This document shows, piece by piece, positions 5,393 to 27,149 of a DNA stretch of 64,000 nucleotides (its first letter is position 1; every line of letters starts with the position of its first letter). The notes under the pieces are model-generated. The model did not search any database, was not told where the DNA came from, and saw only the letters and a program-made list of their open reading frames with translations. This stretch comes from Gemmatimonadota bacterium. GTDB lineage: Bacteria > Gemmatimonadota > Gemmatimonadetes > Palauibacterales > Palauibacteraceae. Location: contig OZ242312.1 in assembly GCA_965207805.1 (NCBI GenBank), positions 1,268,050 to 1,332,049 of the forward strand, read 5' to 3'. A program made the translations under genes and the position numbers.

Positions 5393-8539
<3,147 letters not shown>

Positions 8540-10556: not shown

Positions 10557-11102
10557 ATGCAGATCAACCTGAGCGTCGAGGAGGTCCGGGAGTTTTCGAG
10601 GCGCTACAAGGAGGAGGACGGCGGGCAGCTGCTCGAATTGGACGAAGCCCTACAAGAGTCACTGAAGGATGCTCACCTTCGCGGCCACATCACGCGACGA
10701 CAGTTGCTGGACGTGGCGGAGTGGAAGTCAGGCAAACGAACCCTCCATCACTGCAAGAAGAACACCCCGGAGGAAGTCAAGGAATGCTCTGCGGTTGCGT
10801 TCGGTGCTCGCACGGATCGGCTTCGCATTCATGCGCTAGTAGCACTTCAAGGGGTTTCATGGCCAACCGCAAGCGCTGTCTTGCACTTCGTGTTCCCGAG
10901 TCGATTCCCGATGTTGGATGTCCGCGTGATGCGCACCGTGGGGAGAATCCCCCCCGACTCGAATCAGCCTCCAAACTACACGATCCCGCTGTGGTCCAAG
11001 TACGCCAAGTTGTGCCGGGAGACCGCTGGAAGGTACGGCGTGACACTTCGCGACCTCGACCGGGCTCTGTGGATGTGGGACCTCTGCAATCATCCTCAGT
11101 AA
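10557..11102 (+). CDS. Helix-hairpin-helix DNA glycosylase-like protein (OGG-fold-like)
   Basis: EWKS, LQGVSWPTASAVL (HhH), FPMLDVRV (catalytic Asp position) and LRDLDRALW motifs. Confidence 0.65.
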   Translation: MQINLSVEEVREFSRRYKEEDGGQLLELDEALQESLKDAHLRGHITRRQLLDVAEWKSGKRTLHHCKKNTPEEVKECSAVAFGARTDRLRIHALVALQGVSWPTASAVLHFVFPSRFPMLDVRVMRTVGRIPPDSNQPPNYTIPLWSKYAKLCRETAGRYGVTLRDLDRALWMWDLCNHPQ

Positions 11103-11320
11103 CGCTTCCGCATTAGCGTACAGACCGGCAAGCGACAGAACCCAAGAAGAAGAGGCGGCGGAGGTGCCGCTGGCGGCGGTCGATGCGGCTTCCGGACGGC
11201 GCTGGACGCCGTTGGACGTCGCCGTTTCGGCGGCTGTTGACACCGCCCGAAACGGTCGCCTGACTTCACGTCATGGCGACTCCGACGACCCCGGATTCCG
11301 CGCTCCGAAGGACGGTTTGG

Positions 11321-11420
11321 CCCGCTAATGCGGGAGAGCCAGCCCACCCTTTGGGGCCACGCTCCGCGAGTCCCCGGCAGGGGCTGGCGGGGGGCCGTGC
11401 CCCCTGTGACCCCCACAACG
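11321..11420 (-). promoter_or_regulatory. Putative ColE1-type origin of transfer (oriT)
   Basis: Immediately upstream of mobC. The minus strand reads GGGGTCACAGGGGGCACGGCCCC...GCGGAGCGTG...GGGCTGGCTCT, resembling the ColE1 bom layout with a CTGG^CT nic-like site; adjacent hairpin cccgc-taat-gcggg. Confidence 0.55.
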
Positions 11421-11433
11421 GAAACGGCGCGCC

Positions 11434-11772
11434 GTGAGCGCCGGACGCGCCGTCTGGGTGAAGGTCCGCGCCTCCGAGGCGGAGCGTGCCGAATGGCACG
11501 CCAAGGCGCGCTCGGCGGGCTTGACCCTGTCGGATCTGGTGCGCCGGTCGATCGGCCGGGTCCGCACGTGGACCGTGCCGCACGCCGAGGTCGAGCGCGG
11601 GCGCACCCGCGAACTGGCGCGCCTCGGGAACAACCTCAACCAGATCGCACGCTGGGCGAATACCCACAAGGAGGCCATCGAGGCCGTCGAGGTGATCGCC
11701 CATCTAGTCGCCATCGACCGCGCGCTCGGCGCTTTGGATCCCGCCGAGAGCCCGGAAGCCGATGCACATTAA
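11434..11772 (+). CDS. mobC: Relaxosome accessory protein MobC (MbeC-like, RHH)
   Basis: VKVRASEAE RHH start and ELARLGNNLNQIARWAN motif; overlaps the relaxase start. Confidence 0.93.
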   Translation: MSAGRAVWVKVRASEAERAEWHAKARSAGLTLSDLVRRSIGRVRTWTVPHAEVERGRTRELARLGNNLNQIARWANTHKEAIEAVEVIAHLVAIDRALGALDPAESPEADAH

Positions 11773-13291
11773 GTTCTTGGCGCGCGGAACCGGATCGGCG
11801 CGGGCTGCGGCCAAATACCTCCTCGGGGAGCGGGACGCGGCCGGGAAACCGCGCGAAGGCGTCGAGGTCCTTCGTGGCGATCCCCACCGGGTGGCGTCGG
11901 TGGCGGACGCCCTGGGGTTCGAGCACAGGTACACCTCCGGCGTGATCGCGTGGGCGCCGGAGGACGAACCGACCGACAAACAGATCGGCGCGGTTCTGGA
12001 CGCCTTCGAGGAGACGGCGTGGGCGGGGCTCGAACCGGACCGCTACGCGTGGGCGGCGGTGCTCCACCGAGAGGAGGGCGGCGGCGCCCACGTCCACGTT
12101 CTCGCCGCGCGATGCGACCTTGAGACCGGGCGCAGCCTCAACATTGCCCCTCCGGGCTGGCGGAGAACGTTCGACCCGCTCCGCGACGCCTTCAACCACG
12201 AGCACGGCTGGGGCCGTCCGGACGATCCGGCCCGAGCCAGGGTCGAGCAGCCCGGACACCGCGCGTACATCGAGGCGGCGCGACTGCGGGCCGGGCTCCG
12301 GCTCGAATCCTCCCCCCGCAACCTGATCCGGGACTACCTGATCCAGCGCGTCGAGCACGGCGCGGTGAAGGATCGCTTCGATGTCGTCGCCGCGCTGCGG
12401 GAGGCGGGCTTGGAAGTGCCGCGCCAAGGCAAGGACTACCTGACCGCGATGGACCCGGAGACTGGCGACCGTTGGCGGCTGAAGGGACGGCTGTACGCCT
12501 TTGACTTCCAGCCCGGACGATTCGACCGAGCGGCTGAGGAGGCGGCTGGAGAGCGGACGCGGGGAGACAGGGAAGTTGACCGCGAGCGAGCGCGCTCGGC
12601 GCGCCGGGAACTCGCGGCGCGCCGCGAGGAACGCGCTGCGTACCATCGGGCGCGATACCGCGGAGGCGGCCGCACGGATGCACACGTTGCCGCTGAAGGC
12701 TTGGCCAAAGCCGCTGATCTTCGGCCTGAACCGCTTGCTCGGCATCTCCGCCGGAAGCTGGGCGACGATGCGGTGGTGGTCGAGGAGCATCCAAGCCCGG
12801 ATCAAGACGGTGGCCGAATTGGACTGCGATATCGCGGAGACCCGGCGGACTCTCGCGAGAATCGAGATGGTCGCTTGGAGGATCGCGCTGCCGAAGATCG
12901 AGGACGAGCAGGCCGTGGTGCGGCCGTCGGGGACGCTGGACAAACCGCGCTGGACTTGGCGCGGACGGCCTGTCTGAAGGCCATCAAGAGAGCGAGGAAA
13001 CTGTATGACCGAGTTGGAGGGGCAGTTGACGGAGGCCTTGAAGAGGTTGTCCGGGCAGTCCGAAACGGAACGGCGGCGGCAATCCGAACAGGTCGAAGCC
13101 TTGCGGCGGCAAGTCGAGCGGCAGACCGAGGAGAACGCCACCTTGAGGCGGCGAATCGAGCGGCTCGACGAGCGAGTGACCGGCTTGACCGAGTATTACG
13201 AGACATCTGGCGTCGCGAGACCGCGCGGACGCGGCTGGTGACAAGGCCGCCCACGCGCGGGCCGGATCGCGATGCCGGGCCGAGCCGCTGA
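11762..13291 (+). CDS. mobA: Relaxase, MbeA/MOBP type
   Basis: MHIKFLARGTG, KYLLG (catalytic Tyr), YTSGVIAW, HREEGGGAHVH metal-binding motif, RWRLKGRLY. Confidence 0.92.
   Translation: MHIKFLARGTGSARAAAKYLLGERDAAGKPREGVEVLRGDPHRVASVADALGFEHRYTSGVIAWAPEDEPTDKQIGAVLDAFEETAWAGLEPDRYAWAAVLHREEGGGAHVHVLAARCDLETGRSLNIAPPGWRRTFDPLRDAFNHEHGWGRPDDPARARVEQPGHRAYIEAARLRAGLRLESSPRNLIRDYLIQRVEHGAVKDRFDVVAALREAGLEVPRQGKDYLTAMDPETGDRWRLKGRLYAFDFQPGRFDRAAEEAAGERTRGDREVDRERARSARRELAARREERAAYHRARYRGGGRTDAHVAAEGLAKAADLRPEPLARHLRRKLGDDAVVVEEHPSPDQDGGRIGLRYRGDPADSRENRDGRLEDRAAEDRGRAGRGAAVGDAGQTALDLARTACLKAIKRARKLYDRVGGAVDGGLEEVVRAVRNGTAAAIRTGRSLAAASRAADRGERHLEAANRAARRASDRLDRVLRDIWRRETARTRLVTRPPTRGPDRDAGPSR
12501..12977 (+). 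CDS. MbeB-like mobilisation protein overprinted within the relaxase gene (start uncertain, may be degenerate)
   Basis: Alternative-frame ORF inside the low-complexity relaxase C-terminus with a hydrophobic segment; same position as mbeB in ColE1. Confidence 0.45.
   Translation: MTSSPDDSTERLRRRLESGRGETGKLTASERARRAGNSRRAARNALRTIGRDTAEAAARMHTLPLKAWPKPLIFGLNRLLGISAGSWATMRWWSRSIQARIKTVAELDCDIAETRRTLARIEMVAWRIALPKIEDEQAVVRPSGTLDKPRWTWRGRPV
13005..13241 (+). CDS. mbeD: MbeD/MobD-like coiled-coil protein overprinted within the relaxase gene
   Basis: MTELEGQLTEALKRL N-terminus typical of MbeD; GAGG RBS; nested in mobA in another frame. Confidence 0.75.
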   Translation: MTELEGQLTEALKRLSGQSETERRRQSEQVEALRRQVERQTEENATLRRRIERLDERVTGLTEYYETSGVARPRGRGW

Positions 13292-13324
13292 GGGTGCGTC
13301 GGTGGAACCGGCGGGCGGGCCGGT

Positions 13325-13879
13325 TCATGCTATCGTGATCGTCGAGAGGCTGTCCAGAAACGCCCACCCGATGTACGGGAGGACGGCCCCCAGCCATTCG
13401 AAAGCCTCCGGATGGCCGTCCAGCCCGTCCTGCAAGGCTCCCATCAGCCACGGACCGTCCGGAGGGTCGCGGAACTCCGCGAGGTCGCATCCCTCGATGA
13501 ACCAGGCGGACGCCGCAACGGTCTCGCGCCATGCGTGCCGCGCGCCGTCGCCACCGCCTTCCGCCACCGCCACCGACACCGCAGGCCGCCCGTCCGGGGC
13601 AAGGATGCACGCCCGCAGGACGCGCGGGCCGTGCGGATGCGCGAGCACCTCCAGTTGCCACGCATCGTCCCGCGCCCGCAACGGCGCGGGAACGCCGAGC
13701 GCGCCCGCCCCCGCGATCAGCCGTCCATACGCGGGGGTCACCTCGTCGACCACCTCGGCGCGATCCGAAAGGCAGTAGTTCCCCATGTTGGCGGTCCAGT
13801 GTTCGAGCGTCACGGGTCGATTCCTCACCAAAGTGGTCTTGGACGGTCGGCTCCCCACCTCCGACCGAAGGCCCATCAA
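13325..13879 (-). CDS. Hypothetical protein (start uncertain)
   Basis: Most protein-like ORF between the relaxase and the island end; no recognised motif. Confidence 0.45.
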   Translation of the reverse strand: MMGLRSEVGSRPSKTTLVRNRPVTLEHWTANMGNYCLSDRAEVVDEVTPAYGRLIAGAGALGVPAPLRARDDAWQLEVLAHPHGPRVLRACILAPDGRPAVSVAVAEGGGDGARHAWRETVAASAWFIEGCDLAEFRDPPDGPWLMGALQDGLDGHPEAFEWLGAVLPYIGWAFLDSLSTITIA

Positions 13880-14196
13880 CCGTAAGGTAATCTCGCGCCG
13901 CCGGGCTCAAAGGCCAGGGTCGCGCGCCGGAGAGAGACGTGGTAGGATGAACCGCCTCACCGCTTCCCGTCCCCGCCACGATGGAGGCGAAACGGGGGAT
14001 GCTTCGGCGGTTGCCCCGGTCGACGTCGAGGGTGCACCCGCAGCGGTCGAGCCCACGGTTCGGTGGAAGGTTCACGTCCGCCGCCGTCCACTTCCGTCCG
14101 GTGTGTTCCGGGTCATATTTGTATATTCAAAGTGATACACAACCGAACTGGATACGACGTAAAGCAAAGTGGCGCTGCCGATTACATTTGTCGTGA

Positions 14197-15978
14197 TTAG
14201 TCCCCGCCGAACTCGGCAACCTTGAATCCCTCGCGAAGCTGCGACTCGGACACAACAACCTGGAAGGGCGCGTCCCGCCGGAGTTGGGGCGGATGAGGAA
14301 CCTGGAGTGGCTGGACCTGGCGCATAATCCGCGGCTGAGCGGTCCCCTTCCGTCGACGTTCGCGGACCTCGGGAGACTGGGGCGGTTCGAGTGGACGGGG
14401 ACCGGGCTTTGCGTGCCGGAGGATCCCGTCCTGCTGGACCAGTCGAGCCGCTGGCGCATGCCGCGTTGCGACAGGAAGGCGTTGACTGGTTCGCAGGCGT
14501 ACCTCACGCAGGCGGTCCAGTCGCTCGAATTCCCGGTACCGCTGATCGAAGGCAAAGCGGCGCTGCTGCGAGCGTTCGTGATCGCGCCACGGCCCACGGG
14601 CGCGGAGATCCCCGACGTGCGCGCGACGTTCTTCTACGGGGAAGAGGAGATTCACGCCGTCGATATCCCCGGGAAATCGACGCCTCTCCCCATCGATCTC
14701 GCCGAGGCGGAGGCATCGCTCGAAAAGTCGGCCAACGCCGACATTCCCGGATGGGTCGTAAGACCCGGCGTCGAATTGGAGATCGAGGTCGATCCGGCCG
14801 GAACGCTGGATCCCGGACTCGGGGTGTCGCCCCGGATTCCGGAGTCCGGCCGCCTGCGGCTGCCGGTTGAACGGATGCCCACCTTCGGCCTTACGGTGGT
14901 CCCCTTCCTGTGGAGAACCCAGCCGGATTCAACGGCGATCGACCTCGCCGCGGAGATGGCGGCGAACCCCGAAGGACACAGGCTGCTGTGGGAAACCATC
15001 GACCTCCTCCCGGTCGACGATCTGAGCGTCGAGGCGCACGAGCCCGTACTGACGTCGAGCAACGATTCGGACGCGCTTCTCGATGAAGTGGGCGCCGTCC
15101 GCGTCATGGAGGGAGGGCGGGGTTACTACATGGCGGCGCTCTCGGGCGAGGCCACTGGCGCCTGGGGGGTGGCGTGGATCCCGGGATGGACGAGCTACGT
15201 GCGTCTGGGCGTTTCGAGCCAGCCCGAGGAGGCGCTCACGATAGCGCACGAACTCGGGCACAACCTGAGTCTCTTCCACGCCCCGTGCGACGTGGGGGCT
15301 ACGCTGGATCCCGCGTATCCCTTCCCCGATGGATCAACGGGCGCGTGGGGGATCGATTCGCGCTCCGGCGAGGCCGTTCTCGTGCCGGCGACGACAGCAG
15401 ATTTCATGTCCTACTGCGTCCCGGCCTGGATCGGCGACTACCATTTCGGGAAGGCGGCGGCCTATCGCACCATAGCCGCGGCGTCCGATACCCCCGCACC
15501 GCCCACGGCCACCATGCTCCTCTGGGGCGGCGCGGAAGCCGATGGCACGCCGTATCTGAACCCGGCCTTCGCGGTCGACGCGCCCCCCGCGCTGCCGACC
15601 TCCGACGGCGAGCACGAGATCGTCGGACGCGCGGCCGATGGCCGCATCCTCTTCTCGTTGAGCTTCGACATGACGCCCGTCGCCGATAGCGAAGGGAGGC
15701 TGGGGTTCGCGTACGCCGTCCCCGTCCAGGGGGAGACGGCCGCCCTTCTTGCGGAGATCACGCTTTCCGGTCCGAGCGGGGCCGTAACGGTGGACCGGAA
15801 CACGAACGAACCGGCCGTCATCCTGCGCGACCGGCTCAGCGGACAGGTGCGCGGCGTGCTGCGGGACCTGCCGCAGTCCATGCGAACGCTGGCCGATGCC
15901 GTGACCGGACTCGACGTCGGGCCGGACGTCGAAGTCCTGTTCAGCCGCGGGATCCCGCCCAGCGACCGCAAACCGTAA
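14197..15978 (+). pseudogene. LRR + HExxH zinc metalloprotease (M66-like) surface protein, 5'-truncated
   Basis: Frame opens after an in-frame TGA at 14194 in mid-repeat (VPAELGNLESLAKLRLGHNNLEGRVPPELG). AHELGHNLSLFH zinc motif; no signal peptide. Confidence 0.8.
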
Positions 15979-16087
15979 GAACAGCCCTCCGCGGGCCGGG
16001 GGTAGCGTCTACATCGCGTTGCGCGGAGTGCTTGGCGCGGAGCAAGTTGGGGGCTCCGTTCGGCGATCCTTCGACCTGCGAGCTGCC

Positions 16088-18730
16088 ATGCGTATCGGCC
16101 CCGCTCCCGTTCTCGTTCTTTCCGTCGGCGTCATCCTCGGCTGCGAACCCGGCGACGGCGCGCCCGGCGTGGCCGGCGAGCCGGGGCTGCTCGAGTCCGC
16201 CTCGGCCCGGCCCGTAGCGCCGCTCCTCGACGAAGAGCCGCCGCCCGCGTTCGGCGCCTATCCCGGCGTGCGGCACGGCGGCAACTACATGCACAACTAC
16301 TACCTGCCGCCGGCACCGGGGACGACGCCGTGGTTCCCCACCTGGTCGCCGGACGGCGAGTCGATCGCGGTGGGGATGGCCGGCTCCGTGTGGGAAGTGG
16401 ACGTGGAGACGGGCGACGCCACCGAACTCACGCGCGGGGGCACGTACCACTCGTCCCCCTCCTACTCTCCCGATGGCCGCTGGATCGCGTACACGGCCGA
16501 CTACGGCGGCGAGCGCATCCAGCTTGAGATCCTCGATACGGAAACGGGTGAGACGCGCGCGCTCACGGACGACCGCTTCGTGTACGCCGACCCCGTGTTC
16601 TCTCCCGACGGCGGACGCCTCGCCTACGTGTCGAGCGCGCCCAACGGGTACTTCAACGTCTACATCCGGGACGTGGCGGACGGCGACTGGGCGGGGCCCG
16701 AGATCGCGGTCACGAGCGACAACTCCTACGGCAACAACCGGCTCTACTTCGGGCCCATGGACATGTATATCTCGCCCGCATGGATGCCGGACGGCGAGGA
16801 ACTCCTCCTCGTCTCGAACCGCGACGTGCCGCTGGGCTCGGGGAATGTGATCCGGGTCCCGGCGCGCGCGGACGGGATCCTGGAGGCGCAGACCGTGCTG
16901 CGGGAGCAGACGCTGTACCGCACGCGGCCCGACGTGTCGCTGCACGGCCGGCGCTTCGTCTACTCGTCGACGGCGGGGGCGGCGGACCAGTTCAACAACC
17001 TGTACGTGCAGCCGACGACGGGCGGGGAGCCGTACAAGCTCACCTTCTTCGAGCACGACGCCTTCCACCCGCGCTGGTCGCCCGATGGGGAGACGATCGC
17101 CTACATCACGAATGAGGGCGGCCTCCCCCAACTGGAACTCATCGAGACCTACGGCGGCGGCCGGCGGCGGATCGAGATCGGGGAGCGTACCTACGCGGGG
17201 CCGACGGGCATGCTCTCGGTCACGGTGCGCACGGATGCGAGCGGGCGGGACCCCGTTCCGGCGCGCGTCACCCTCCTGGGGCCGGACGGCAAGTACCACG
17301 CCCCGCCCGACGAATACGCGCGGATCGGCCAGCGCGGGCGCTATCCGGCCTTCCACACCGACGGGACGTTCACAGTCGCGCTCCCGCCGGGCGAAGCGGA
17401 CCTCACCATCGTGAAAGGCTTCGAGATCGAGCCGCAGCGCATGAAGGTGGCGATCGAGGCCGGGGAGACGGTGGACCTGGCGGTCACGCTGCACCGGTTC
17501 GCGGACCTCTCGGCGGACGGCTGGCACAACGGCTCCACGCACGTCCACATGAACTACGCGGGGAACCTCCACAACTCGCTCGAGAACCTGATGTTCATGT
17601 CCGCGGCGGAGGACCAGGACATCGTGAACGAGCAGGTGGCGAACAAGGACAACCGGATCCTGGACCACCAGTTCTTCGTGCCCGGGGGCGGGGAGCACCC
17701 GGTGTCGGCGGAGATGGAGGACATGGTCGTCATCGTGGGGCAGGAGTACCGGCCGCCGTTCTACGGACACGTGTTCATGTTCGGGATGCGCGACCACCTC
17801 ATCTCGCCCTTCACGACGGGATACGAGGGGACGGCGATCGAGAGCCTGTATCCGTCGAACACGGACATGATGCGGAAGGCGAAGGACCAGGGGGCGACGA
17901 CGGGCTACGTCCACCCCTACTTCGGCGACGTGGACCCGCTCACGTTCGGGCTGATGGGCGGGAAGGGGTTCATGGTCGACGCCGTGCTGGGGACGAGCGA
18001 CGCGCTCGAGTGGTCCACGGCTGAGCGGGCGGGGTTCTTCCCGCTCTACGCGCTGTGGAGCAACGACGTGCGGGTCTGCGCGACCGGCGGAGAGGACTCG
18101 ATCAGCAACCTGCACGCCACGCCGCTCGTGGGCGCCATGCGGACGTACGTGCGCCCGCCGGATGGGCGCCTGACGGCGGACGGATGGTTCGAGGGCCTGC
18201 GCGGCGCTGCGGCGTTTGTGACGAACGGGCCGCTCGTCGAACTCACGGTAAACGGGGAGATCCCGGGTTCCGTCCTGGATCTGGGCGCGGACGCGACGAG
18301 CGTCGAGGTGGAGGCCAACGTGCGGTCGATCGTGCCGCTGACCCGCGCCTGGCTCGTGCGCGACGGGGAGGATGTCCTCGAACTCGAACTCTCGGAGGAC
18401 CGCATGTCCGCCTCGTTCTCGGGCGACATCGAGATCGACGGCAGCGGCTGGATCCACCTGCGGGCGGAGGGAGAGCCGGAGGAACGGTTCCCGCTCGACG
18501 CGGCCTATCCGCAGGGGTTCACGAACCCCGTCTGGTTCACGGTCGGAGGCGAGGCGATCCGCGACGCGGCGGGGGCGCAGTACGGCCTCGACTGGATCGA
18601 CGAACTCGAACGCCAGGCGCGGGAGTGGCCCGGCTGGCGGTCGCAGTCGGAACAGGACCACGTCTACGCCCAGTTCGAGGAGGCCCGGGACGTGTACCGC
18701 CGGTTGCTGGCCGAAGCCGGCGGCGGGTGA
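16088..18730 (+). CDS. Lipoprotein: TolB-like PD40 propeller fused to CehA/McbA-type PHP metallohydrolase
   Basis: ILGC lipobox, repeated PxWSPDG motifs, STHVHMNY, GQEYRP, YVHP and GGEDS. Confidence 0.85.
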   Translation: MRIGPAPVLVLSVGVILGCEPGDGAPGVAGEPGLLESASARPVAPLLDEEPPPAFGAYPGVRHGGNYMHNYYLPPAPGTTPWFPTWSPDGESIAVGMAGSVWEVDVETGDATELTRGGTYHSSPSYSPDGRWIAYTADYGGERIQLEILDTETGETRALTDDRFVYADPVFSPDGGRLAYVSSAPNGYFNVYIRDVADGDWAGPEIAVTSDNSYGNNRLYFGPMDMYISPAWMPDGEELLLVSNRDVPLGSGNVIRVPARADGILEAQTVLREQTLYRTRPDVSLHGRRFVYSSTAGAADQFNNLYVQPTTGGEPYKLTFFEHDAFHPRWSPDGETIAYITNEGGLPQLELIETYGGGRRRIEIGERTYAGPTGMLSVTVRTDASGRDPVPARVTLLGPDGKYHAPPDEYARIGQRGRYPAFHTDGTFTVALPPGEADLTIVKGFEIEPQRMKVAIEAGETVDLAVTLHRFADLSADGWHNGSTHVHMNYAGNLHNSLENLMFMSAAEDQDIVNEQVANKDNRILDHQFFVPGGGEHPVSAEMEDMVVIVGQEYRPPFYGHVFMFGMRDHLISPFTTGYEGTAIESLYPSNTDMMRKAKDQGATTGYVHPYFGDVDPLTFGLMGGKGFMVDAVLGTSDALEWSTAERAGFFPLYALWSNDVRVCATGGEDSISNLHATPLVGAMRTYVRPPDGRLTADGWFEGLRGAAAFVTNGPLVELTVNGEIPGSVLDLGADATSVEVEANVRSIVPLTRAWLVRDGEDVLELELSEDRMSASFSGDIEIDGSGWIHLRAEGEPEERFPLDAAYPQGFTNPVWFTVGGEAIRDAAGAQYGLDWIDELERQAREWPGWRSQSEQDHVYAQFEEARDVYRRLLAEAGGG

Positions 18731-20349
18731 GCGGGAGGAGCCCGTACCGCACCGACCTCACGCCGCTCGAGTTCCTGCGGCGGAGCGCGTTCGTGTACCC
18801 CGACAAGGCCGCGGTCGTGCACGGGGACCGCAGCTACTCCTACCGCGAGTTCGAGCTTCGCGTGCGGCGGCTGGCGGCGGGGCTGCTCGGGGCCGGGCTG
18901 GAGCCGGGCGACCGGGTGGCCTTCCTGTCGCCGAACACGCCGCCCATGCTCGAGGCGCACTACGGGGTGCCGGCCGCGGGCGGCGTGCTCGTCACGATCA
19001 ACACGCGGCTCGGCACGGGCGAGATCGCCTACATCCTGGAGCACAGCGGCGCGCGGTACCTGTTCGTCGACCGGGCCCTCGAGAGCCTCATCGACGGGGA
19101 CGCGCTGCGCGGCCGCGGAGTGACGGTCGTGCCGATCGACGATACCGGGGCGCCCAACGACCCCTACGAGGCGTTCCTCGCCGCCGGCCCCGATTCCGGT
19201 CCGGAGTCCGCTTCCGGCTCGGCCGGGCTGCCGCCGCTGCCGGCCGGCCCCGCGGACGAAGAAGCCCCGATCTCGATGAACTACACGTCGGGGACGACGG
19301 GCCGTCCCAAGGGCGTCGTCTACACGCACCGCGGCGCGTACCTGAACGCGATCGGGGAACTCATCGAGATGGAGATGACGCCGGGCGCCGTCTATCTCTG
19401 GACCCTCCCCATGTTCCACTGCAACGGGTGGTGCTTCACGTGGGCGGTGACCGCCATCGGCGGCACGCACGTGTGCCTGCGGGAGGTCGATCCCGGCCGC
19501 ATCTGGGCGCTGATCGAGTCGGAGGGCGTCACGCACTACTGCGGGGCGCCGACCGTGCAGATCATGCTCGTCAACGATCCGGCGGCCCGGCCGCTGGAGC
19601 ACCCCGTGCGGACGATGATCGCGGGAGCGCCGCCCTCACCGACCCTGCTGGAGCAGTTGAAGGCGCTTAACTTCCACCCGATCCACGCCTACGGCCTCAC
19701 GGAGACGTACGGCCCCACGGCGACCTGCGCCTGGCACGCGGACTGGGACGGGCGCCCGCCCGCCGAGCAGGCGCGGTTGCTCGCCCGGCAGGGCCAGGGG
19801 TTCGTCACCTCCGATCTCATGCGGGTCGTTGACGAGGAGGGCGGGGACGTGCCGCGCGACGGCGCGACGATGGGCGAGGTCGTGATGCGCGGGAACATCG
19901 TCATGAAGGGCTACTACGCGCAGCCCGAGGCCACCGACGAGGCGTTCTGCGGAGGCTGGTTCCACTCGGGGGACCTCGCCGTGTGGCACCCCGACGGCTA
20001 CGTGGAACTCCGCGACCGGGCCAAGGACGTCATCATCTCCGGCGGCGAGAACATCTCCACCATCGAGGTCGAGCAGACCATCGCCGGCCACCCCGCCGTG
20101 CTGGAGTGCGCCGTCATCGCCATCCCCCACGACGAATGGGGCGAACGCCCCAAGGCCTTCGTCACGCTGAAACCGGAAGCCGACGCCACGGAGGCGGAAA
20201 TCATCGACTTCTGCCGGGACCGGATCGCCCACTTCAAGTGCCCCGACGCGGTCGACTTCGGCCCCCTCCCCAAGACCTCCACCGGCAAGGTCCAGAAGTA
20301 CATCCTCCGCGACCGCGAATGGACCGGCCGCGACAAGCGCATCAACTGA
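18727..20349 (+). CDS. Acyl-CoA ligase (AMP-binding; fatty-acid/DmdB-like)
   Basis: LTPLEFL, NYTSGTTGRPKGV, MFHCNGW, YGLTETYGP, WFHSGDL, PKTSTGK; GTGA overlap with the upstream gene. Confidence 0.93.
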   Translation: MSGRSPYRTDLTPLEFLRRSAFVYPDKAAVVHGDRSYSYREFELRVRRLAAGLLGAGLEPGDRVAFLSPNTPPMLEAHYGVPAAGGVLVTINTRLGTGEIAYILEHSGARYLFVDRALESLIDGDALRGRGVTVVPIDDTGAPNDPYEAFLAAGPDSGPESASGSAGLPPLPAGPADEEAPISMNYTSGTTGRPKGVVYTHRGAYLNAIGELIEMEMTPGAVYLWTLPMFHCNGWCFTWAVTAIGGTHVCLREVDPGRIWALIESEGVTHYCGAPTVQIMLVNDPAARPLEHPVRTMIAGAPPSPTLLEQLKALNFHPIHAYGLTETYGPTATCAWHADWDGRPPAEQARLLARQGQGFVTSDLMRVVDEEGGDVPRDGATMGEVVMRGNIVMKGYYAQPEATDEAFCGGWFHSGDLAVWHPDGYVELRDRAKDVIISGGENISTIEVEQTIAGHPAVLECAVIAIPHDEWGERPKAFVTLKPEADATEAEIIDFCRDRIAHFKCPDAVDFGPLPKTSTGKVQKYILRDREWTGRDKRIN

Positions 20350-20378
20350 CCGCCGCCTGGAGCCCGTCCAGGACCTGA

Positions 20379-20398
20379 GACGTTCCCGCGGGAACGTC
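20379..20398. repeat. Perfect 20-bp palindrome GACGTTCCCGCGGGAACGTC
   Basis: Read directly in the intergenic region upstream of the cytochrome c gene. Confidence 0.75.
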
Positions 20399-20472
20399 AG
20401 GGAGCTTGACGCCCCTCGCCCTCCGCGAAGATCATCCACGGGTTCGGGATCACGCGACTTCAACCCCTTCGA

Positions 20473-21261
20473 ATGCCTCCCATGTTCACGCCGGCTCGGA
20501 AAAAACTCCTGCTGGCCGTGCTGGTGCTCTCATTCGGAGTCCAGACGGGGCTGGTGTATTCGGACGTGCGCAGCGAGCCGCTGTCGAAGGCGGCGCGCGA
20601 AGGACGTGCGCTCTGGCAGGCGTATGCCTGTCAAACCTGTCACCAGTTCTACGGTCAGGGGGGATTCCTCGGGCCGGATCTGACGAATGCCGCGAGCCGG
20701 GTTGATTCGACCCGGCTCGTTTCGTTGTTGACGGTGGGGAGCGGGCAGATGCCGCCGCTCGGGTTCAGCGACGGAGAGACGGCGGCGATGGCGGCCTTCC
20801 TGCGCGAGATGGACCGGCCGGAGATCGGCCGTGGCGAACTGCGGATGGGGACGCCGGGGGAGGGCGCCGGGGCGCAGGCCGCGTTCGAGCGCGCAATCGA
20901 GGCGATGCTCGGGGCGGATCAGGACCTGGCCGAAGTCGCCGCCGGGTTCGAGGCCTACCGGATCCGGCCTTGCAGCGCGTGCCACTTCCCGTTCCGCGAC
21001 TCGCCCGTCGGGGCGCCGGACCTGTCGCTCGCCGCCGGGTCGCTCGCGCCCGACTCGCTTGATCAGGTTCTTGCCGAGGGCCGCCCCCTGCTGGGCATGC
21101 CGCCCCCCGTGCCACCGCTCGACGACGCGGACCGCGCCGCGCTCACCGCGTTCCTCGAGTTCCTGAGCGCGAACCGCGAGCAACTGGAGGCCGCGACGGA
21201 GGCGCTCGCGGCGGGCCGACGCCTCGACTGGGGCGCGCTGCCGTGGTGGGAGTACCCGTGA
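20473..21261 (+). CDS. Membrane-anchored diheme cytochrome c, NorC-like N-terminal domain
   Basis: TM helix, CQTCHQFYGQGGFLGPDLTN and GQMP axial Met, second motif CSACH. Confidence 0.88.
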   Translation: MPPMFTPARKKLLLAVLVLSFGVQTGLVYSDVRSEPLSKAAREGRALWQAYACQTCHQFYGQGGFLGPDLTNAASRVDSTRLVSLLTVGSGQMPPLGFSDGETAAMAAFLREMDRPEIGRGELRMGTPGEGAGAQAAFERAIEAMLGADQDLAEVAAGFEAYRIRPCSACHFPFRDSPVGAPDLSLAAGSLAPDSLDQVLAEGRPLLGMPPPVPPLDDADRAALTAFLEFLSANREQLEAATEALAAGRRLDWGALPWWEYP

Positions 21262-22658
21262 AGCCCTTCGCCGCCGGCCACCCCGCGCACCAGTTCGCCG
21301 TGCTGACCTTCCTCCGCGGCGGGCTCATTGCGATCGCGATCACGCTCGTGGGCGGCATCCTCGCCGCGTTCTACTCCGTGCCGTCGCTCGCCCCATGGTT
21401 CCAGCAGATCGGCCTCGACCTGCGCCAACTGCGGCCGATCCACACCGTCTTCGCCTCGGCCTGGGTCTTCCTCGGCGGCGTCGCGGTCGTGTACCGCTTC
21501 CTTCAGGACGAGGGTCCGCCGACGCCGGGCGACCGCTGGCGCCTCCGGGTCCAGGTCCTGACCTGGGCGGCCGCCGGCCTCGGGATCCTGATCACGCTCG
21601 GCCTCGGCATCGGATCGGGCCGCGAATACGTCGGCTTCCATCCCTTCTTCTCCCTCCTCATCCTCGCGGGCTGGATCTGCTACGCGTGGAACTTCTTCCG
21701 CCTCGCCGGGAGGCGGTTCTGGGAGCGGCCGGTGTACGTGACGATGTGGGGGGTGGGGCTGCTCTTCTTCATCGTCACCTTCGTGGAACAGCACATGTGG
21801 CTGATCCCGGGGATCTTCGGGGACCCGGTGCAGGACATGCGGATCCAGTGGAAGGCGACGGGCACCCTCGTCGGCAGCTTCAACCTGTTCGTCTACGGCT
21901 CGGTGATCTACCTGGGCGAGCGGATCTCGGGAGACCCCGCGTACGGGCGCTCGACGACCGCGTACATGCTGTTCGCGGTGGGACTGCTCAACTCGTTCAC
22001 GAACTTCGCGCACCACACCTATCACCTTCCGGGGCGGGAGTCGGTGAAGTGGATCGCCTTCGTCGTGAGCATGATGGAGATCATCGTGCTCGCGCGGGCC
22101 ATGTTCGACCTGTGGCGGGCGCTCCGGACGCCGAGCGACCCCGCGTTCTGCGCGGCCCGCGGCTCGTTCGCGGCGGCGAAGTGGTGGACGTGCGCGGTCC
22201 TGTTCGGTGCGATCCTCATCTCCGTTCCGCCCTTGAACGCGGTGATTCACGGGACGTATGTCGTCACGGGACACGCGATGGGGGCGATGATCGGCATCGA
22301 CACGATGATCCTGCTGGGGGCCGCGATCTGGATCCTGAGCGAGCACTTCCAGGCGCGCGAGGGGGAGGACGCGTGGGATACGCTCCACACGCCGGCCATG
22401 CGCTGGAGTCTCATCGGGCTGAACCTCTCGGTGGCGGCGCTCGTGCTCTGGCTGCACGTGGTGGGGACGGCGGTCGGCGTGACGCGGGCGGTGCACGCGC
22501 CGGGCGAGACCTACGTGCCGCCGGACTGGGTGTCGGCCTGGAGCGGGATCGGGTTCGCGGTCTTCGGCACGCTGTCGCTGGTCTTCTTCGGGTGGCTCCT
22601 CGCACAGCTCATGTCGCCCGCCTTCCGCTACTTCCGGGTGTCGGAGGAACGGGCATGA
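21258..22658 (+). CDS. Divergent heme-copper oxidase superfamily subunit I (NorB-like)
   Basis: About 12 hydrophobic helices, RPIHT, GREY, AHHTY, SMME and HGTYVVTGH motifs; several canonical ligands substituted. Confidence 0.82.
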   Translation: MKPFAAGHPAHQFAVLTFLRGGLIAIAITLVGGILAAFYSVPSLAPWFQQIGLDLRQLRPIHTVFASAWVFLGGVAVVYRFLQDEGPPTPGDRWRLRVQVLTWAAAGLGILITLGLGIGSGREYVGFHPFFSLLILAGWICYAWNFFRLAGRRFWERPVYVTMWGVGLLFFIVTFVEQHMWLIPGIFGDPVQDMRIQWKATGTLVGSFNLFVYGSVIYLGERISGDPAYGRSTTAYMLFAVGLLNSFTNFAHHTYHLPGRESVKWIAFVVSMMEIIVLARAMFDLWRALRTPSDPAFCAARGSFAAAKWWTCAVLFGAILISVPPLNAVIHGTYVVTGHAMGAMIGIDTMILLGAAIWILSEHFQAREGEDAWDTLHTPAMRWSLIGLNLSVAALVLWLHVVGTAVGVTRAVHAPGETYVPPDWVSAWSGIGFAVFGTLSLVFFGWLLAQLMSPAFRYFRVSEERA

Positions 22659-24646
22659 CGGCGTCGCGGGCGAGGAGCCAGCCGGGCGTGACGGGCGCGA
22701 GCGGGCCGCTGTGGACGCCGGATCCCGACTTTGCCGCGACGACGAACATGGCGCGCTTCACGCGCTACGCGAACGAGGCCTGCGGGGCGGCGGCCGACTC
22801 CCCGGAGGCGCTGTGGCGCTGGTCGATCCGCGAGCCGGCGGCGTTCTGGAACGCGGTGTGGGACTTCTGCGGCGTCATCGGGGAGCGGGGGGAACGCGTG
22901 GTCGTCGACTTCGACCGCCTGCCGGGGGCGCGCTGGTATCCGGATGCGCGGCTGAACTACGCGGAGAACCTGCTGCGCCGCCGCGACGACGGCCCGGCGC
23001 TCCTCTTCAGGGCCGAGGACCGCCTCCGCCGCGACCTCTCCTGGGCCGAGCTCTACGACACCACGTCCCGCCTCGCCCAGGCGCTGGACGCGCTCGGAAT
23101 CGAACCGGGCGACCGCGTGGCCGGCTACGTGCCCAACATGCCGGAGTCCATCGTGTACATGCTCGCCTCGGCGAGCCTCGGAGCCACGATCTCGACCGCC
23201 TCGCCCGACTTCGGCGTGCAGGGCGTGCTCGACCGCTTCGGCCAGATCGAACCGCGCGTCCTCCTCGCGGCCGACGGCTACTTCTGGCAGGGGAAGCGGT
23301 ACTCGAGCCTCGACCGCCTGCCGGAGATCGTGCGGCGCCTCCCCTCGGTGGAGCGCGTCATCATCGTCCCCCACACCGAGCCGGATCCGGACGTCTCGGC
23401 GATCCCCCACGCCGTCCTGTTCGACGACTTCATCGGCCCGTGGAGCCCGCGGGAGATCGAATTCCGGCGGCTCCCGTTCGACCATCCCCTCTACATCCTC
23501 TTCTCCTCCGGCACGACCGGGGTCCCGAAGTGCATCGTCCACGCGGCGGGCGGCATCCTCCTCACCCACCTGAAGGAGCATCAACTGCACGCGGACATCC
23601 GGCCGGGCGACCGCACCTTCTACTACACGACCTGCGGGTGGATGATGTGGAACTGGCTGTCGTCGGCGCTGGCGAGCGAGGCGACGGCGGTCCTGTACGA
23701 CGGATCGCCCTTCCATCCCGGGCCGCACGTCCTGTTCGACTACGCGGACGAAGTACGCATGACCCAGCTCGGTGTGTCCGCGAAGTTCATCGACGCGCTC
23801 GGGAAGGAGGGCCTCCGGCCGCGGGAGACGCACGATCTCTCCTCGGTGCGGACGATGCTTTCCACGGGGTCTCCCCTCGTCCCGGAGGGGTTCGACTACG
23901 TGTACCGCGACGTGAAGCCCGACGTCCACCTCGCCTCGATCTCGGGCGGGACCGACCTGTGCGCCGGGTTCGTGGTGGGACACCCGCTCCTCCCCGTGTG
24001 GCGGGGCGAGATACAGGCGCCGTCGCTGGGCATGGACGTGGATGTGTGGGATGAAGAGGGGCGGTCGATGCCGACGGGGAAGGGGGAACTCGTCTGCAAG
24101 GCGCCCTTCCCGTCGGTGCCGACGGGGTTCTGGGGAGACGACGACGGGAGCCGCTTCCACGCGGCGTACTTCGACATGTATCCCAACGTCTGGCGGCACG
24201 GCGACTGGATGGAGTGGACGGAACACGGCGGCGCGGTGATCTACGGCCGCTCCGACGCGACGCTGAACGCGGGCGGCGTGCGGATCGGGACGGCGGAGAT
24301 CTACCGGCTCGTGGACCGGATGCCGGAGATTCTGGAGTCCATCGTCATCGGGCAGCCGTGGGAGAACGACACGCGCGTCGTGCTCTTCGTGCGGCTCGCG
24401 GAGGGCCGGAGCCTGGACGAAGATCTGGAGGCGCGGATCCGAAGCGAGATCCGGGAGCACGCCTCGCCCCGGCACGTTCCGGCGCGGATACTGGAGGTGG
24501 CGGACATCCCGCGCACGAAGAGCGCCAAGATCTCGGAACTCGCCGTGCGGGCCGTGGTACTGGGAGAGTCGGTCAAGAACGTCGAGGCGCTCGCCAACCC
24601 CGAGGCCCTCGACGACTACCGCAACCGCCCGGAACTCCAGGCGTAG
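22655..24646 (+). CDS. Acetoacetate-CoA ligase
   Basis: LNYAENLL, ILFSSGTTGVPKCIVH, TTCGWMMWNW, SISGGTD, GRSDATLN; ATGA overlap with the NorB-like gene. Confidence 0.93.
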   Translation: MTASRARSQPGVTGASGPLWTPDPDFAATTNMARFTRYANEACGAAADSPEALWRWSIREPAAFWNAVWDFCGVIGERGERVVVDFDRLPGARWYPDARLNYAENLLRRRDDGPALLFRAEDRLRRDLSWAELYDTTSRLAQALDALGIEPGDRVAGYVPNMPESIVYMLASASLGATISTASPDFGVQGVLDRFGQIEPRVLLAADGYFWQGKRYSSLDRLPEIVRRLPSVERVIIVPHTEPDPDVSAIPHAVLFDDFIGPWSPREIEFRRLPFDHPLYILFSSGTTGVPKCIVHAAGGILLTHLKEHQLHADIRPGDRTFYYTTCGWMMWNWLSSALASEATAVLYDGSPFHPGPHVLFDYADEVRMTQLGVSAKFIDALGKEGLRPRETHDLSSVRTMLSTGSPLVPEGFDYVYRDVKPDVHLASISGGTDLCAGFVVGHPLLPVWRGEIQAPSLGMDVDVWDEEGRSMPTGKGELVCKAPFPSVPTGFWGDDDGSRFHAAYFDMYPNVWRHGDWMEWTEHGGAVIYGRSDATLNAGGVRIGTAEIYRLVDRMPEILESIVIGQPWENDTRVVLFVRLAEGRSLDEDLEARIRSEIREHASPRHVPARILEVADIPRTKSAKISELAVRAVVLGESVKNVEALANPEALDDYRNRPELQA

Positions 24647-24667
24647 CAGGGCGACGTGGCCGGCGGA

Positions 24668-25117
24668 TTATCGCGACCTGTCCGCCCAGGGGTTGACCAC
24701 TTCGATGCCCGTGTTCCGGAAGTCCCGCTCGTTCCGTGTGACCAGGGTGAGGCCGTGACGCGCGGCCACGCCCGCCAGCATCGCGTCCGGCAGGTGGTCG
24801 TCGAGCGGTTCGCCTCGCCGCCTCTTCAATTCCATGATGCGGGCGCAGGCTCGGGCGTCGCCGAGGGTCCAGTCGAGGACTCGTTCACGGAAGAGGTCGT
24901 CCAGAAGGCCCTGAAACCGCTCGGCCAGATGGTCCCGCCGCCGGCCGGCGTCCATGCGGCCGATTCCGTTGAGGATCTCCCACACCGTGACGGACGCCAG
25001 ACCGACTCCCTGGGCCCAGATCCCGTCGAGAAACCCGGCCACTCGCGCGTCGGGAGCCGGACGCATCATCTCCGAGACCACGTTCGTATCGATGAGCCAG
25101 CGGAGGGGTTGCCTCAC
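24668..25117 (-). CDS. vapC: PIN-domain toxin (VapC/FitB family)
   Basis: LIDTNVVSE, DAMLAG and TRNERDF motifs. Confidence 0.93.
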   Translation of the reverse strand: MRQPLRWLIDTNVVSEMMRPAPDARVAGFLDGIWAQGVGLASVTVWEILNGIGRMDAGRRRDHLAERFQGLLDDLFRERVLDWTLGDARACARIMELKRRRGEPLDDHLPDAMLAGVAARHGLTLVTRNERDFRNTGIEVVNPWADRSR

Positions 25118-25531: not shown

Positions 25532-26020
25532 ATGACATTTTCGACTGCCGGTTCCCCGGTGTCCGCCTCCCGCGGGAGGGTCTCGATTGGGCTCATCCTC
25601 GGACTTCTGGGTGCGTCGGGGTGCGGCGAGTCGGGGCTGGGGCCGGATGTGCCGGAAAACAACGTGGTTCTCGCGGGCAACGGCGATTGGGGAGACGATC
25701 CCTACGTCGCGAACTCGGCCTCGGTGGACGGACACGGATTGACGGTCGAAGTCTCATACGCGGGCGGTTGCCGGAGGCACATCTTCACGCTGGTGATCTC
25801 GGAGACGTTCCTGGAATCGGATCCGGTGCAGCTCCCGGCGGAACTCGTCCACGAAGCGAACGGCGATGCCTGCGAGGCCTGGCTGACCAACACCCGCGTC
25901 TTCGACCTCGACCTGGTCAGAACCCGCTACCGGCAGTTCTACGGACCCGGACCCGGCACGGTCGTGCTGCGGGTCGAGGGTCTGCCTGGGGAGAGCCTGG
26001 TGTATGAGTTCGCCGGATAG
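25532..26020 (+). CDS. Lipoprotein, NigD-like C-terminal beta-sandwich
   Basis: ASGC lipobox; VSYAGGCRRHIFTLV...FLESDPVQ...HEANGDACEA. Confidence 0.7.
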   Translation: MTFSTAGSPVSASRGRVSIGLILGLLGASGCGESGLGPDVPENNVVLAGNGDWGDDPYVANSASVDGHGLTVEVSYAGGCRRHIFTLVISETFLESDPVQLPAELVHEANGDACEAWLTNTRVFDLDLVRTRYRQFYGPGPGTVVLRVEGLPGESLVYEFAG

Positions 26021-26021
26021 C

Positions 26022-27149
26022 ATGGCGGTGAGGATGAGATCGGAGTTTGCCGGCTTGTACGTTGCGCGGGGGGTCGCGCTCGCGGCGGTCGGGGCGTTCG
26101 GCGGATTTCTCGCGGCGGGAGGGTGTGTGGCGCAGGAGACGGCGGATTCGGCGGGGGGCGGGATCACGGCAGTCGAGGGCCTCGCGCTGGGGCACTTCAC
26201 TCTGGAGGAGCGGCCCACGGGCTGTACGGTCATCCTCGCCGAGGACGGCGCCGTCGCCGGCGTCGACGTGCGGGGCGGGGCGCCGGGGACGCGGGAGATC
26301 GCCCTCCTCGACCCGGTGAACAGCGTGCAGGAAGCCCACGCCATCGTGCTCTCGGGTGGGAGCGCATTCGGCCTCGACGCGGCATCGGGCGTGGTCCGGT
26401 ATCTCGAGGAGCGCGGGATCGGATACCAGGCCGGGGACCATGTCGTCCCGATCGTCGCGGCGGCGATCCTGTTCGATCTCGGCATCGGCGGCGGGTCCGT
26501 TCGTCCCGGGCCGGAGTGCGGTTACGAGGCCGCCCGCGCGGCGAGCACGGCCGCGCCCGCCGAGGGCAGCGTCGGCGCGGGGGCCGGAGCGACGGTCGGG
26601 AAGCTCCGCGGCCGCGGCCGCGCGATGAAGGGCGGAATCGGCACCGCCTCGATCACCCTCGAGGACGGTCTCACGGTGGCCGCGGTCGTGGCGGTCAATG
26701 CGGTCGGAGACGTGATCGATCCGGCCACGGGGGAGGTCGTGGCCGGCGTCCGAACCGAGGACGGGACGGGCTTCGCGGACGCCCGCGCGCTGCTGCGGGA
26801 GGGCGAGGTGCGGCCTCCGGGCGACGCGCCGGGCGGCGACGCCTCCGTCGAGAACACGACGATCGGCGTCGTGGCGACGAACGCGACTCTCACGAAAGCC
26901 GAGATCACGAAGGTCGCGCAGATGGCGCACGACGGGCTCGCCCGTGCCATCTACCCGGCGCACACCCCGAGCGACGGCGACACCCTGTTCGGCCTTGCCA
27001 CCGGCACGCACACGGACGACGCAGGCGTGGCGCGGATCGGCGCGCTCGCCGCCGACATGGTCGCCGAAGCGATCCTGCGCGCCGTCCGCACCGCCACCGG
27101 CCTCCCCGGCCTCCCCTCCGTGTCCGACCTGGCCGACACCGGCAACTGA
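26022..27149 (+). CDS. P1/S58 (DmpA-like) peptidase, exported
   Basis: TGCTVI, VDVRGGAPGTRE, LSGGSAFGLDAA, NTTIGVVATN, HDGLARAIYPAHT, DGD. Confidence 0.92.
   Translation: MAVRMRSEFAGLYVARGVALAAVGAFGGFLAAGGCVAQETADSAGGGITAVEGLALGHFTLEERPTGCTVILAEDGAVAGVDVRGGAPGTREIALLDPVNSVQEAHAIVLSGGSAFGLDAASGVVRYLEERGIGYQAGDHVVPIVAAAILFDLGIGGGSVRPGPECGYEAARAASTAAPAEGSVGAGAGATVGKLRGRGRAMKGGIGTASITLEDGLTVAAVVAVNAVGDVIDPATGEVVAGVRTEDGTGFADARALLREGEVRPPGDAPGGDASVENTTIGVVATNATLTKAEITKVAQMAHDGLARAIYPAHTPSDGDTLFGLATGTHTDDAGVARIGALAADMVAEAILRAVRTATGLPGLPSVSDLADTGN

Follow-up and report, generated by a model that had tools for sequence, protein, structure and literature searches.

What reaction is left to a haem-copper oxidase homologue in which part of the metal site of its closest relatives has been replaced? 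The question is raised by a gene pair at 20473–22658 of a 64,000-nucleotide stretch of DNA (the window) from a Gemmatimonadota bacterium of the order Palauibacterales, which corresponds to positions 1268050–1332049 of a 4.02 Mb genome that is a single contig (OZ242312.1) and 98.65% complete. The first gene (20473..21261, + strand) encodes P0001, a membrane-anchored dihaem cytochrome c of 262 residues, and the second (21243..22658, + strand) encodes P0002, a haem-copper oxidase subunit I homologue of 471 residues. A sequence-only reading had described the pair as NorCB-like, after the subunits of cytochrome-c-dependent nitric oxide (NO) reductase (cNOR), with a rewired active site. Our answer has two parts of unequal strength. 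We are confident that the pair is a membrane reductase of two subunits that depends on cytochrome c, and that it falls in the cNOR/cbb3 branch of the haem-copper superfamily and in the family that Murali et al. (2024, PMC11214002) named ‘N2Ored’. The whole statement, with reduction of NO to nitrous oxide (N2O) as the reaction, is put forward tentatively, as a reading that falls somewhat short of probable.

The gene pair and its rebuilt active site

The window has a G+C content of ∼69% and carries many spurious open reading frames (ORFs), and real frames were picked by third-position G+C content, which is 0.89 for 20473–21261, 0.92–0.95 for 21243–22658 and 0.91–0.96 for the gene that follows at 22655–24646. 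The ORFs of P0001 and P0002 are genuine genes, and that of P0002 starts with GTG and overlaps the 3′-end of the P0001 gene by 19 nt. P0002 matches the Pfam COX1 model end to end (model positions 8–433 of 436) but weakly (4.4e-23), and no NCBIfam model names it or, likewise, any of four canonical cNOR controls. A phmmer search of the PDB with P0002 alone gave no match at E-values up to 1, and only a profile of its family reached cNOR. This profile matched 8 sequences at E-values up to 1, led by cNOR NorB 4xyd_A (6.9e-24) and followed by qNOR 3ayf, cNOR 3o0r_B (1e-16) and cbb3 CcoN 3mk7_A (1.3e-14). An AlphaFold2 model of P0002 from a 77-row alignment has 12 long helices, a predicted local distance difference test score of 93.8 and a predicted template modelling (TM) score of 0.93. 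Foldseek placed cbb3 CcoN 3mk7_A first for this model (TM score 0.80), then cNOR NorB 3o0r_B (0.78/0.82) and then qNOR, the best structural matches to cbb3 CcoN and cNOR spanning 0.76–0.82. Hence, by its COX1 match and by Foldseek, P0002 has the twelve-helix fold of the haem-copper superfamily; it keeps four of the six canonical His residues (His67, His257, His258 and His344).

The partner P0001 matches the Pfam model Cytochrome_CBB3 (6.3e-18) and is also matched in NCBIfam, and reading its sequence by eye suggests an N-terminal hydrophobic anchor or transmembrane helix. Domain 1, with the haem c motif CQTCH (53–57), Met93 and GQGGFLGPDLTN, is NorC-like and matched NorC in the PDB (4xyd_B, 1.6e-5; 3o0r_C, 3.1e-4). 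Domain 2, with CSACH (167–171) and Met209, is a second class I cytochrome c. The NorC-like domain with an additional CxxCH motif that had been noticed in the sequence is thus present, and the NorC matches of domain 1, together with the best match of the family profile to cNOR NorB, agree with the description of the pair as NorCB-like.

All motifs that had been quoted from the pair were found on direct inspection of the sequences, those of P0002 being RPIHT (64–68), QWKATGTLVGSFN (202–214), AHHTY (256–260), SMME (276–279) and TGHAM (342–346). For their register, relatives were aligned (36, then 77 diverse sequences) and three methods were compared, HMMER against 3o0r_B, MAFFT L-INS-i and MAFFT G-INS-i, which agreed; four canonical cNORs of the same phylum, carrying HLWVE, HH and HGH, served as positive controls for MAFFT. 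Residue numbers of 3o0r_B were counted from the printed profile alignment, and the assignment of cNOR residues to cofactors is based on the FeB ligation stated in PMC11214002 and otherwise presumably matches the cNOR structure. Several columns of cNOR are kept: the helix II ligand of low-spin haem b, His60, corresponds to His67 (21441..21443, + strand), Glu135 to Glu128, Asp198 to Asp198, the helix VII pair His258/His259 to His257-His258 (22011..22016, + strand), Glu280 of helix VIII to Glu279 (22077..22079, + strand) and the high-spin haem b3 ligand of helix X, His347, to His344. Helix VI is different. The FeB ligand His207 is replaced by Gly207, the FeB ligand Glu211 has no counterpart, its position falling on a one-residue deletion, and the second helix VI Glu, Glu215, is replaced by Asn214; this core, from Lys204 to Asn214, lies at 21852..21884 (+ strand). 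In helix X, Met346 takes the place of His349, the second haem b ligand (His344-Ala-Met346, 22272..22280, + strand). Moreover, a family-specific acidic residue, Glu182 (21786..21788, + strand), stands at the periplasmic end of helix V and has no cNOR counterpart, the cNORs showing a 5-residue gap beside it in the MAFFT alignments.

Of the three His and one Glu that bind FeB in cNOR (PMC11214002), only the HH pair is left in P0002. The loss of the FeB His and the catalytic Glu from helix VI had been recognized from the sequence alone, but the pairing of HLWVEG with QWKATG on which it was based is five residues off; the conclusion is unaffected by this correction because residues 200–225 of P0002 contain no His, Asp or Glu. 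The change from HxH to HAM is real, as Met346 falls in the His349 column by all three methods, and we propose from these alignments that the low-spin haem b is ligated by His67 and Met346. A proper alignment, named beforehand as what might overturn the sequence-only reading, did not restore the canonical ligands. With two of four FeB ligands and one haem b ligand replaced, P0002 is not a standard NO or O2 reductase, as that reading held.

Comparison with characterized systems places P0002 nearest to cNOR without making it one. It shares with NorCB (3O0R, 4XYD) the twelve-helix NorB fold, the columns of the haem b His, the haem b3 His, the HH pair, Glu280, Glu135 and Asp198, and a NorC-type partner, encoded alongside, with the motif GxG-aromatic-x-x-P-D/E-L; it differs in His207 to Gly, Glu211 deleted, Glu215 to Asn and His349 to Met, in the new Lys204 and Glu182, in the extra haem c domain, and in the lack of a norQ match. 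From cbb3 CcoN (3MK7), its best structural match at a TM score of 0.80 and a profile match at 1.3e-14, with relatives fused to FixO/CcoO-like and dihaem domains, P0002 is set apart by a low-spin haem of His/Met type and by the absence of a helix VI His, hence of the CuB His triad and the His-Tyr cross-link of the C family. Two precedents exist for its substitutions: nNOR has a His/Met low-spin haem, and gNOR is cited as the first haem-copper family with an active-site His replaced, whereas both are B-family-related with CuA-type partners (PMC11214002) and P0002 is on the cNOR side with a cytochrome c partner. Lacking B-family kinship, a CuA-type partner and a cNOR-like active site, it has only the His/Met haem in common with nNOR. 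Size and partner separate it from NO dismutase (NOD), a qNOR-derived polypeptide of ∼800 residues without a haem c partner.

Conservation among relatives and the family ‘N2Ored’

Conservation by column was counted over 79 full-length cluster representatives (P0002 included), drawn from 198 full-length proteins. A search of genomes matched at least 599 stretches, 591 of them encoding relatives, and the best 80 of the 591 were used as genome loci; a search of metagenomes, with an alignment of 22 low-GC K-type representatives as query, matched 600 stretches, 548 of them with relatives, and the best 80 were used (mean G+C content 40%; the low-GC loci below). His67 is present in 78 of the 79 representatives, Glu182 in all 79, Asn214 in 75, His257 in 78, His258 in 76, His344 in 77 and Met346 in 75; His67, His257, His258, His344 and Met346 were found in 80/80 genome loci. 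Lys204 (59/79, with His in another clade), Gly207 (61/79) and Glu279 (58/79, with Ala in that clade) are more restricted, and still K/G/N at 204/207/214 and Glu279 occur in all 80 genome loci. A 16-residue signature is exact in 74 of these loci, with one conservative change in each of the remaining 6, and the corresponding K-type pattern is matched by 79/80 metagenome loci. Because the substitutions are fixed across relatives, they are selected and not products of decay; simple decay, the other outcome that might have undone the sequence-only reading, is excluded by their conservation in 80/80 genome and 79/80 metagenome loci.

The representatives fall into two clades. The K-type clade, which includes the window, has Lys204, Gly207, Gly211, HHT and Glu279 and counts 58–61 representatives, depending on the column; its unnamed sister, the H-type clade (17–18 of the 79, among P0222–P0273), has instead His204 (QWH204), Asp207, Ala211, an HHH triplet and Ala279. 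Common to both are the His/Met haem b, GREY, Glu182, Asn214 and the one-residue deletion in helix VI. The H-type residues may form a three-His-plus-carboxylate metal site in a shifted register. All best 80 genome loci are K-type, with labels that include Gemmatimonadota, Planctomycetota, Acidobacteria and others. In a quick IQ-TREE analysis of 40 rows, compiled without cbb3, qNOR or NOD, the K-type, the H-type and the two together had support values of 95, 99 and 94 (Shimodaira–Hasegawa-like approximate likelihood ratio test), and the joint clade was sister to the four canonical cNORs, with A- and B-like oxidases outside at 100. The names given to relatives in a protein cluster atlas are generic cbb3 and NorB only.

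The cytochrome c partner is conserved with the oxidase. A P0001 homologue lies immediately upstream of the oxidase gene in 79/80 genome loci, the exception being a locus (L016) with only 381 bases upstream. In these loci, which represent the window's clade, 70 of 76 partner ORFs carry two CxxCH motifs, and both haem motifs, both distal Met residues, the NorC-like GxGGFLGPDLTN and the C-terminal W258/E260 are at least 90% conserved; in the low-GC clade, 74/75 partner ORFs encode a NorC-like protein with a single haem. Moreover, some relatives (P0155, P0162, P0182 and P0196) are fused proteins of ∼800 residues that join COX1 to a FixO/CcoO-like domain and 2–3 cytochrome c domains, which is in favour of the two subunits being physically associated. 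For sensing or pure electron transfer, functions that had also been suggested for the pair, there is no indication; the partner in 79/80 loci and the fused FixO-like forms fit a reductase.

P0002 is a member of ‘N2Ored’ and not a new kind of protein, a conclusion that is well supported, though indirectly. Membership was judged via the per-genome table of Murali et al. rather than via their tree or hidden Markov model. In Dataset S6 (PMC11214002), genomes of the KS3-K002 genus JAAXHJ01 are listed with A=2, N2Ored=1 or 2 and nothing else, and Longimicrobiales genomes and UBA2161 with A=1, N2Ored=1. The present host genome has exactly two A-type oxidases besides the P0002 gene, and the locus from isolate UBA2161 (L078) is K-type; because the table rows of KS3-K002 and UBA2161, two independent lineages, match the genomes found here, we assign P0002 to the family. 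The taxa agree as well: ‘N2Ored’ is described as mostly Bacteroidota, with Gemmatimonadota (KS3-K002, Longimicrobiales), Planctomycetota UBA1135 and Vicinamibacterales (PMC11214002), and these agree with the taxa of the loci found here. The closest genome records to P0002 are metagenome-assembled genomes (MAGs) of Candidatus Palauibacter, at 89–97% protein identity, a genus of Gemmatimonadota in the order Palauibacterales, equivalent to GTDB KS3-K002 (PMC10469786, as far as the parts consulted describe it). One Ca. P. denitrificans MAG has two contigs, each with a 97%-identical copy of the gene.

According to Murali et al., the family comprises 25 NCBI genomes, 597 IMG sequences and 293 GTDB genomes, is a cNOR-related branch without the active-site Tyr, and has N2O reductase activity as a proposal only (PMC11214002). 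The parts of the main text consulted contain no active-site description of ‘N2Ored’, and the SI Appendix and Datasets S2/S3 may hold one; the consulted parts of the preprint version add nothing further on the family. A literature search for ‘N2Ored’ as a whole word returned no paper with the term in the main text, and a search for Flexibacter canadensis with nitrous oxide reductase returned none characterizing P0002's family. New here are the signature at residue level, the division into K- and H-type, the difference between dihaem and monohaem partners, the fused forms and the NO-linked context described below. Within the family as named, the window's clade has a dihaem partner and the low-GC clade a monohaem one, and the context found here favours NO over N2O.

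Nitric oxide, nitrous oxide or another substrate

In the reading favoured here, in which the complex acts as an NO reductase (NOR), electrons would pass from a periplasmic donor to the haem c of domain 2, on to that of the NorC-like domain 1, then to haem b (His67/Met346) and finally to haem b3 (His344). Since the Glu135 (Glu128) and Asp198 (Asp198) columns are conserved, proton uptake is probably periplasmic, as it is in cNOR, which would make the reaction non-electrogenic. The distal pocket is rebuilt, with His257, His258 and Glu279 retained, the helix VI His and Glu of FeB absent, and Lys204 and Asn214 added; Lys204, one turn above Gly207, may reach into the space vacated by the His-to-Gly change, and the site may hold a 2-His/1-carboxylate metal or no second metal. 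The substrate would be external NO, and its reduction to N2O would serve detoxification or provide an electron sink. A broader formulation, in which the complex is a superfamily reductase without a three-His second-metal site and converts N-oxides at haem b3, in a Lys204/His257/His258/Glu279 pocket that has a 2-His/1-carboxylate metal or none, strikes us as conceivable but doubtful.

Gene context in the low-GC loci is what points to NO. Neighbours were counted within 8–10 kb; as only 63/80 loci extend 2 kb or more to one side or both, the frequencies are minimum ones. An Rrf2-family regulator occurs in 23/80 loci and the di-iron repair protein RIC/YtfE in 11 (TIGR03652, 221–246 bits against a cut-off of 204.7), each in 9 of 42 clusters at 70% identity; a Crp/Fnr regulator is present in 8 loci, a haemerythrin-PAS protein in 5, NosZ in 4 (within 10 kb, one cut by the locus edge) and NirK in 2 (479 bits in locus L171). 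The remaining recurrent neighbours are a PTPS-like protein (18/80), a soluble protein of ∼600 residues without Pfam or NCBIfam match (13/80; for example P0276, L165:13192–15009, + strand, and L171:6628–8436, − strand), a 428-residue membrane protein with a DUF2249/DUF1858 protein (7/80), a COX3/NorE-like protein (6/80) and a VWA protein (3/80). In L171 the order is a nosZ fragment and, further on, cytochrome c, oxidase, PTPS-like protein, two Rrf2 regulators, SufT-like protein, membrane protein, DUF2249 protein, NirK, two small proteins and RIC, and no other NOR candidate was found among the scanned ORFs of 4500–18500; in such an island the cassette would seem to occupy the place of a NOR. The 428-residue protein beside NirK in this locus (P0277, L171:13090–14376, − strand) is polytopic and has a faint COX1 match. 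RIC and NsrR have established roles in NO handling; RIC and NirK relate to NO and not to N2O, and so would Rrf2 if it is NsrR-type.

Several observations weigh against NO as the substrate. One FeB His and the FeB Glu of cNOR are gone from P0002, and in cNOR activity is lost when the equivalent Glu is mutated. That Lys204 reaches into the pocket is itself a proposal. The NsrR model gave the adjacent Rrf2 proteins at best 38 bits against a cut-off of 182, so their identity as NsrR is unsupported. The low-GC loci are interrelated and their counts overstate independence, RIC falling in 4/12 and Rrf2 in 2/12 clusters at 55% identity. When the ORFs flanking the cassette in the 80 genome loci, which are high in G+C, were clustered de novo, no conserved neighbour besides the partner emerged, the neighbours being housekeeping genes; NO-linked neighbours occur in 0/80 of these loci, the window's lineage included. 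Thus the NO-linked context is carried over to the window by homology only (∼24–33% identity, same signature). Nor is there a match to the cNOR accessory gene norQ (CbbQ_C) in the host genome, where norD was not searched for, or a norQ/norD-type neighbour in the 80 genome loci; among the low-GC loci, the VWA protein near 3/80 is the nearest to such a neighbour. Finally, in a hand count over a non-random sample, the first 53 rows with N2Ored in Dataset S6 (PMC11214002), 20 also have a recognized NOR.

None of the denitrification genes searched for was found in the host genome. NosZ is absent (only CuA-domain matches of ∼25 bits), no NirK exceeds the cut-off (only an 86-bit partial multicopper match), no NirS is convincing (one marginal 25-bit match at the Pfam cut-off) and no NarG or NapA lies over the cut-off. 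With norQ, nirK, nirS and nosZ missing from the genome by these thresholds there are none in the window either, as had been noted from its sequence, although for norD no search was made. The partial NirK match comes from an ORF of ∼386 residues outside the window (G000:C1:461007–461372). Its similarity to the NirK model is confined to the first cupredoxin domain, and its score of 86 bits falls below the cut-off of 296; the ORF, not a standard NirK, is kept in 20/23 related genomes searched. A molybdopterin oxidoreductase at G000:C1:105075–107102, with a weak NapA/NarG match, contains one in-frame TGA, which may reflect selenocysteine, two genes or a break. Among 301 sampled Gemmatimonadota genomes, 21 carry the family (E-values up to 1e-149), and four further matches near 1e-31 are canonical cNORs. 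Three of the 21 carriers have NosZ and one has NirK over the cut-off, and most have no other non-A oxidase. NosZ is present in 115 of the 301 genomes, that is, in 3/21 carriers versus 112/280 non-carriers and, within the window's taxonomic family, in 1/15 versus 5/8.

This scarcity of NosZ in carriers would suit the published proposal of a haem-based, copper-independent N2O reductase forming N2, in which haem b3 would abstract the oxygen of N2O with Lys204 and the His pair, and the ferryl state would be reduced via the high-potential His/Met haem b. However, phylogeny confounds the comparison: a single sponge-associated genus supplies 14 of the 15 carriers in the taxonomic family, so the complementarity may reflect one habitat shift. 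The co-occurrence with NOR in 20/53 rows would also suit a downstream step. Murali et al. derived the proposal from the membrane-bound, acetylene- and sulfide-insensitive N2O reductase of Flexibacter (now Solitalea) canadensis, which has one family member in their dataset, but according to their Dataset S8 the same organism has nosZ, nosD, nirK, napAB and qNOR (PMC11214002). As S. canadensis has nosZ, the old phenotype needs no new enzyme. To our knowledge, enzymatic N2O reduction at haem has no biochemical precedent. In the low-GC loci the recurrent neighbours RIC, NirK and Crp/Fnr are tied to NO (Rrf2 is not established as NsrR), no nosDFYL-type cluster was found among the scanned representatives of recurrent neighbour clusters, and in the 4/80 loci with NosZ within 10 kb of the cassette a second N2O reductase would be redundant. 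Moreover, N2O-reduction potential has been ascribed to sediment and saline-soil Palauibacterales MAGs (PMC10469786, in the parts consulted), which likewise counts against the proposal. We therefore consider N2O as the substrate improbable and favour NO reduction over it.

A different catalysis at haem b3 and the Lys-His2-Glu pocket, be it NO oxidation or dismutation or the reduction of peroxide, nitrite, hydroxylamine or low levels of O2, is unlikely but harder to set aside than N2O reduction. The second-metal site is unlike that of any characterized haem-copper enzyme, the invariant Glu182 has no cNOR counterpart, the window's lineage has only housekeeping neighbours, the host is without every denitrification gene searched, and carriers are mostly aerobes with A-type oxidases. 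Within this range, canonical O2 reduction is opposed by the lack of a helix VI His, hence of the His-Tyr cross-link that it requires (PMC11214002). Dismutation would proceed without electron input, which sits poorly with the conserved cytochrome c partner, and the NO-centred context of the low-GC loci fits NO oxidation and not peroxide or hydroxylamine. Where the sequence-only reading suggested different chemistry, the low-GC context indicates that it may still be reduction of NO, at a site of different build. That P0002 is a decaying or non-catalytic cNOR relic would explain the missing cNOR-defining ligands and is most improbable, since the new residues are fixed from phylum to phylum, 20/21 carrier genomes have an uninterrupted frame with no internal stop, identity within the genus is 89–97% with the partner and promoter-like element conserved, and third-position G+C content is 0.92–0.95.

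Between NO and N2O, the choice matters beyond this genome. Microbial turnover of the two gases sets greenhouse-gas fluxes, and genome surveys count recognized NOR and NosZ genes only, whereas the family is common and is found in organisms otherwise scored as NOR-free (21/301 Gemmatimonadota, at least 591 genome stretches, and 293 GTDB genomes in PMC11214002). With NO as the substrate, hidden sources of N2O would exist in sponge symbionts and in many marine members of the Gemmatimonadota, Planctomycetota and Bacteroidota, the family would catalyse the reduction of NO in a new way, and the published label ‘N2O reductase’ would be wrong; if it reduces N2O, the same organisms would be hidden sinks and a second, copper-cluster-independent kind of N2O reductase would exist. 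In either case the enzyme bears on the question whether a binuclear centre can do without its second metal.

Flanking genes and putative promoter of the cassette

Upstream of P0001, an AMP-binding gene, its frame taken from third-position G+C content, ends at 20349. Between it and P0001 lies a putative sigma-70-like promoter, TTGACG-18-GATCAT (20406..20435, + strand), identified by consensus match only; it is the sole promoter-like site in 20200–24900, where shuffled sequences gave a mean of 0.2, and both hexamers are unchanged in 7/7 loci (the window and 6 Palauibacter loci). Three ORFs with Arg/Pro-rich translations that run over the real genes, 22628–24475 (− strand), 22711–24054 (+ strand) and 21395–22650 (+ strand; the 5′ part of 21395–24646), were rejected as artefacts of high G+C content. 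Elsewhere in the window, a gene at 16019–18730 (+ strand) encodes a TolB-like beta-propeller with a CehA/McbA metallohydrolase domain, and one at 26004–27149 (+ strand) a Peptidase_S58 protein; both are peptidase-type, and neither has a tie to respiration.

Downstream, the gene at 22655..24646 (+ strand), assigned from its translation and third-position G+C content, encodes an AMP-binding protein that we take to be acetoacetyl-CoA-synthetase-like, a name based on an N-terminal motif rather than a family search. Its ATG overlaps the stop codon of P0002 as ATGA, no terminator-like site was found between the two genes, and it is probably co-transcribed with the P0001–P0002 cassette, a respiratory-type module. 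It is a lineage-specific neighbour outside the conserved module, following the cassette in 9/80 genome loci, namely 7 labelled Palauibacter, one labelled Gemmatimonadetes only (L007) and one labelled Gammaproteobacteria (L004, JAPPHB010000079.1). Contigs labelled Gammaproteobacteria, Enterobacterales or Rickettsiales also account for L038, L042 and L063. The copy in L004 is 96% identical to the Palauibacter gene and has the same flanking genes, and this contig is probably mis-binned or comes from a mislabelled MAG.

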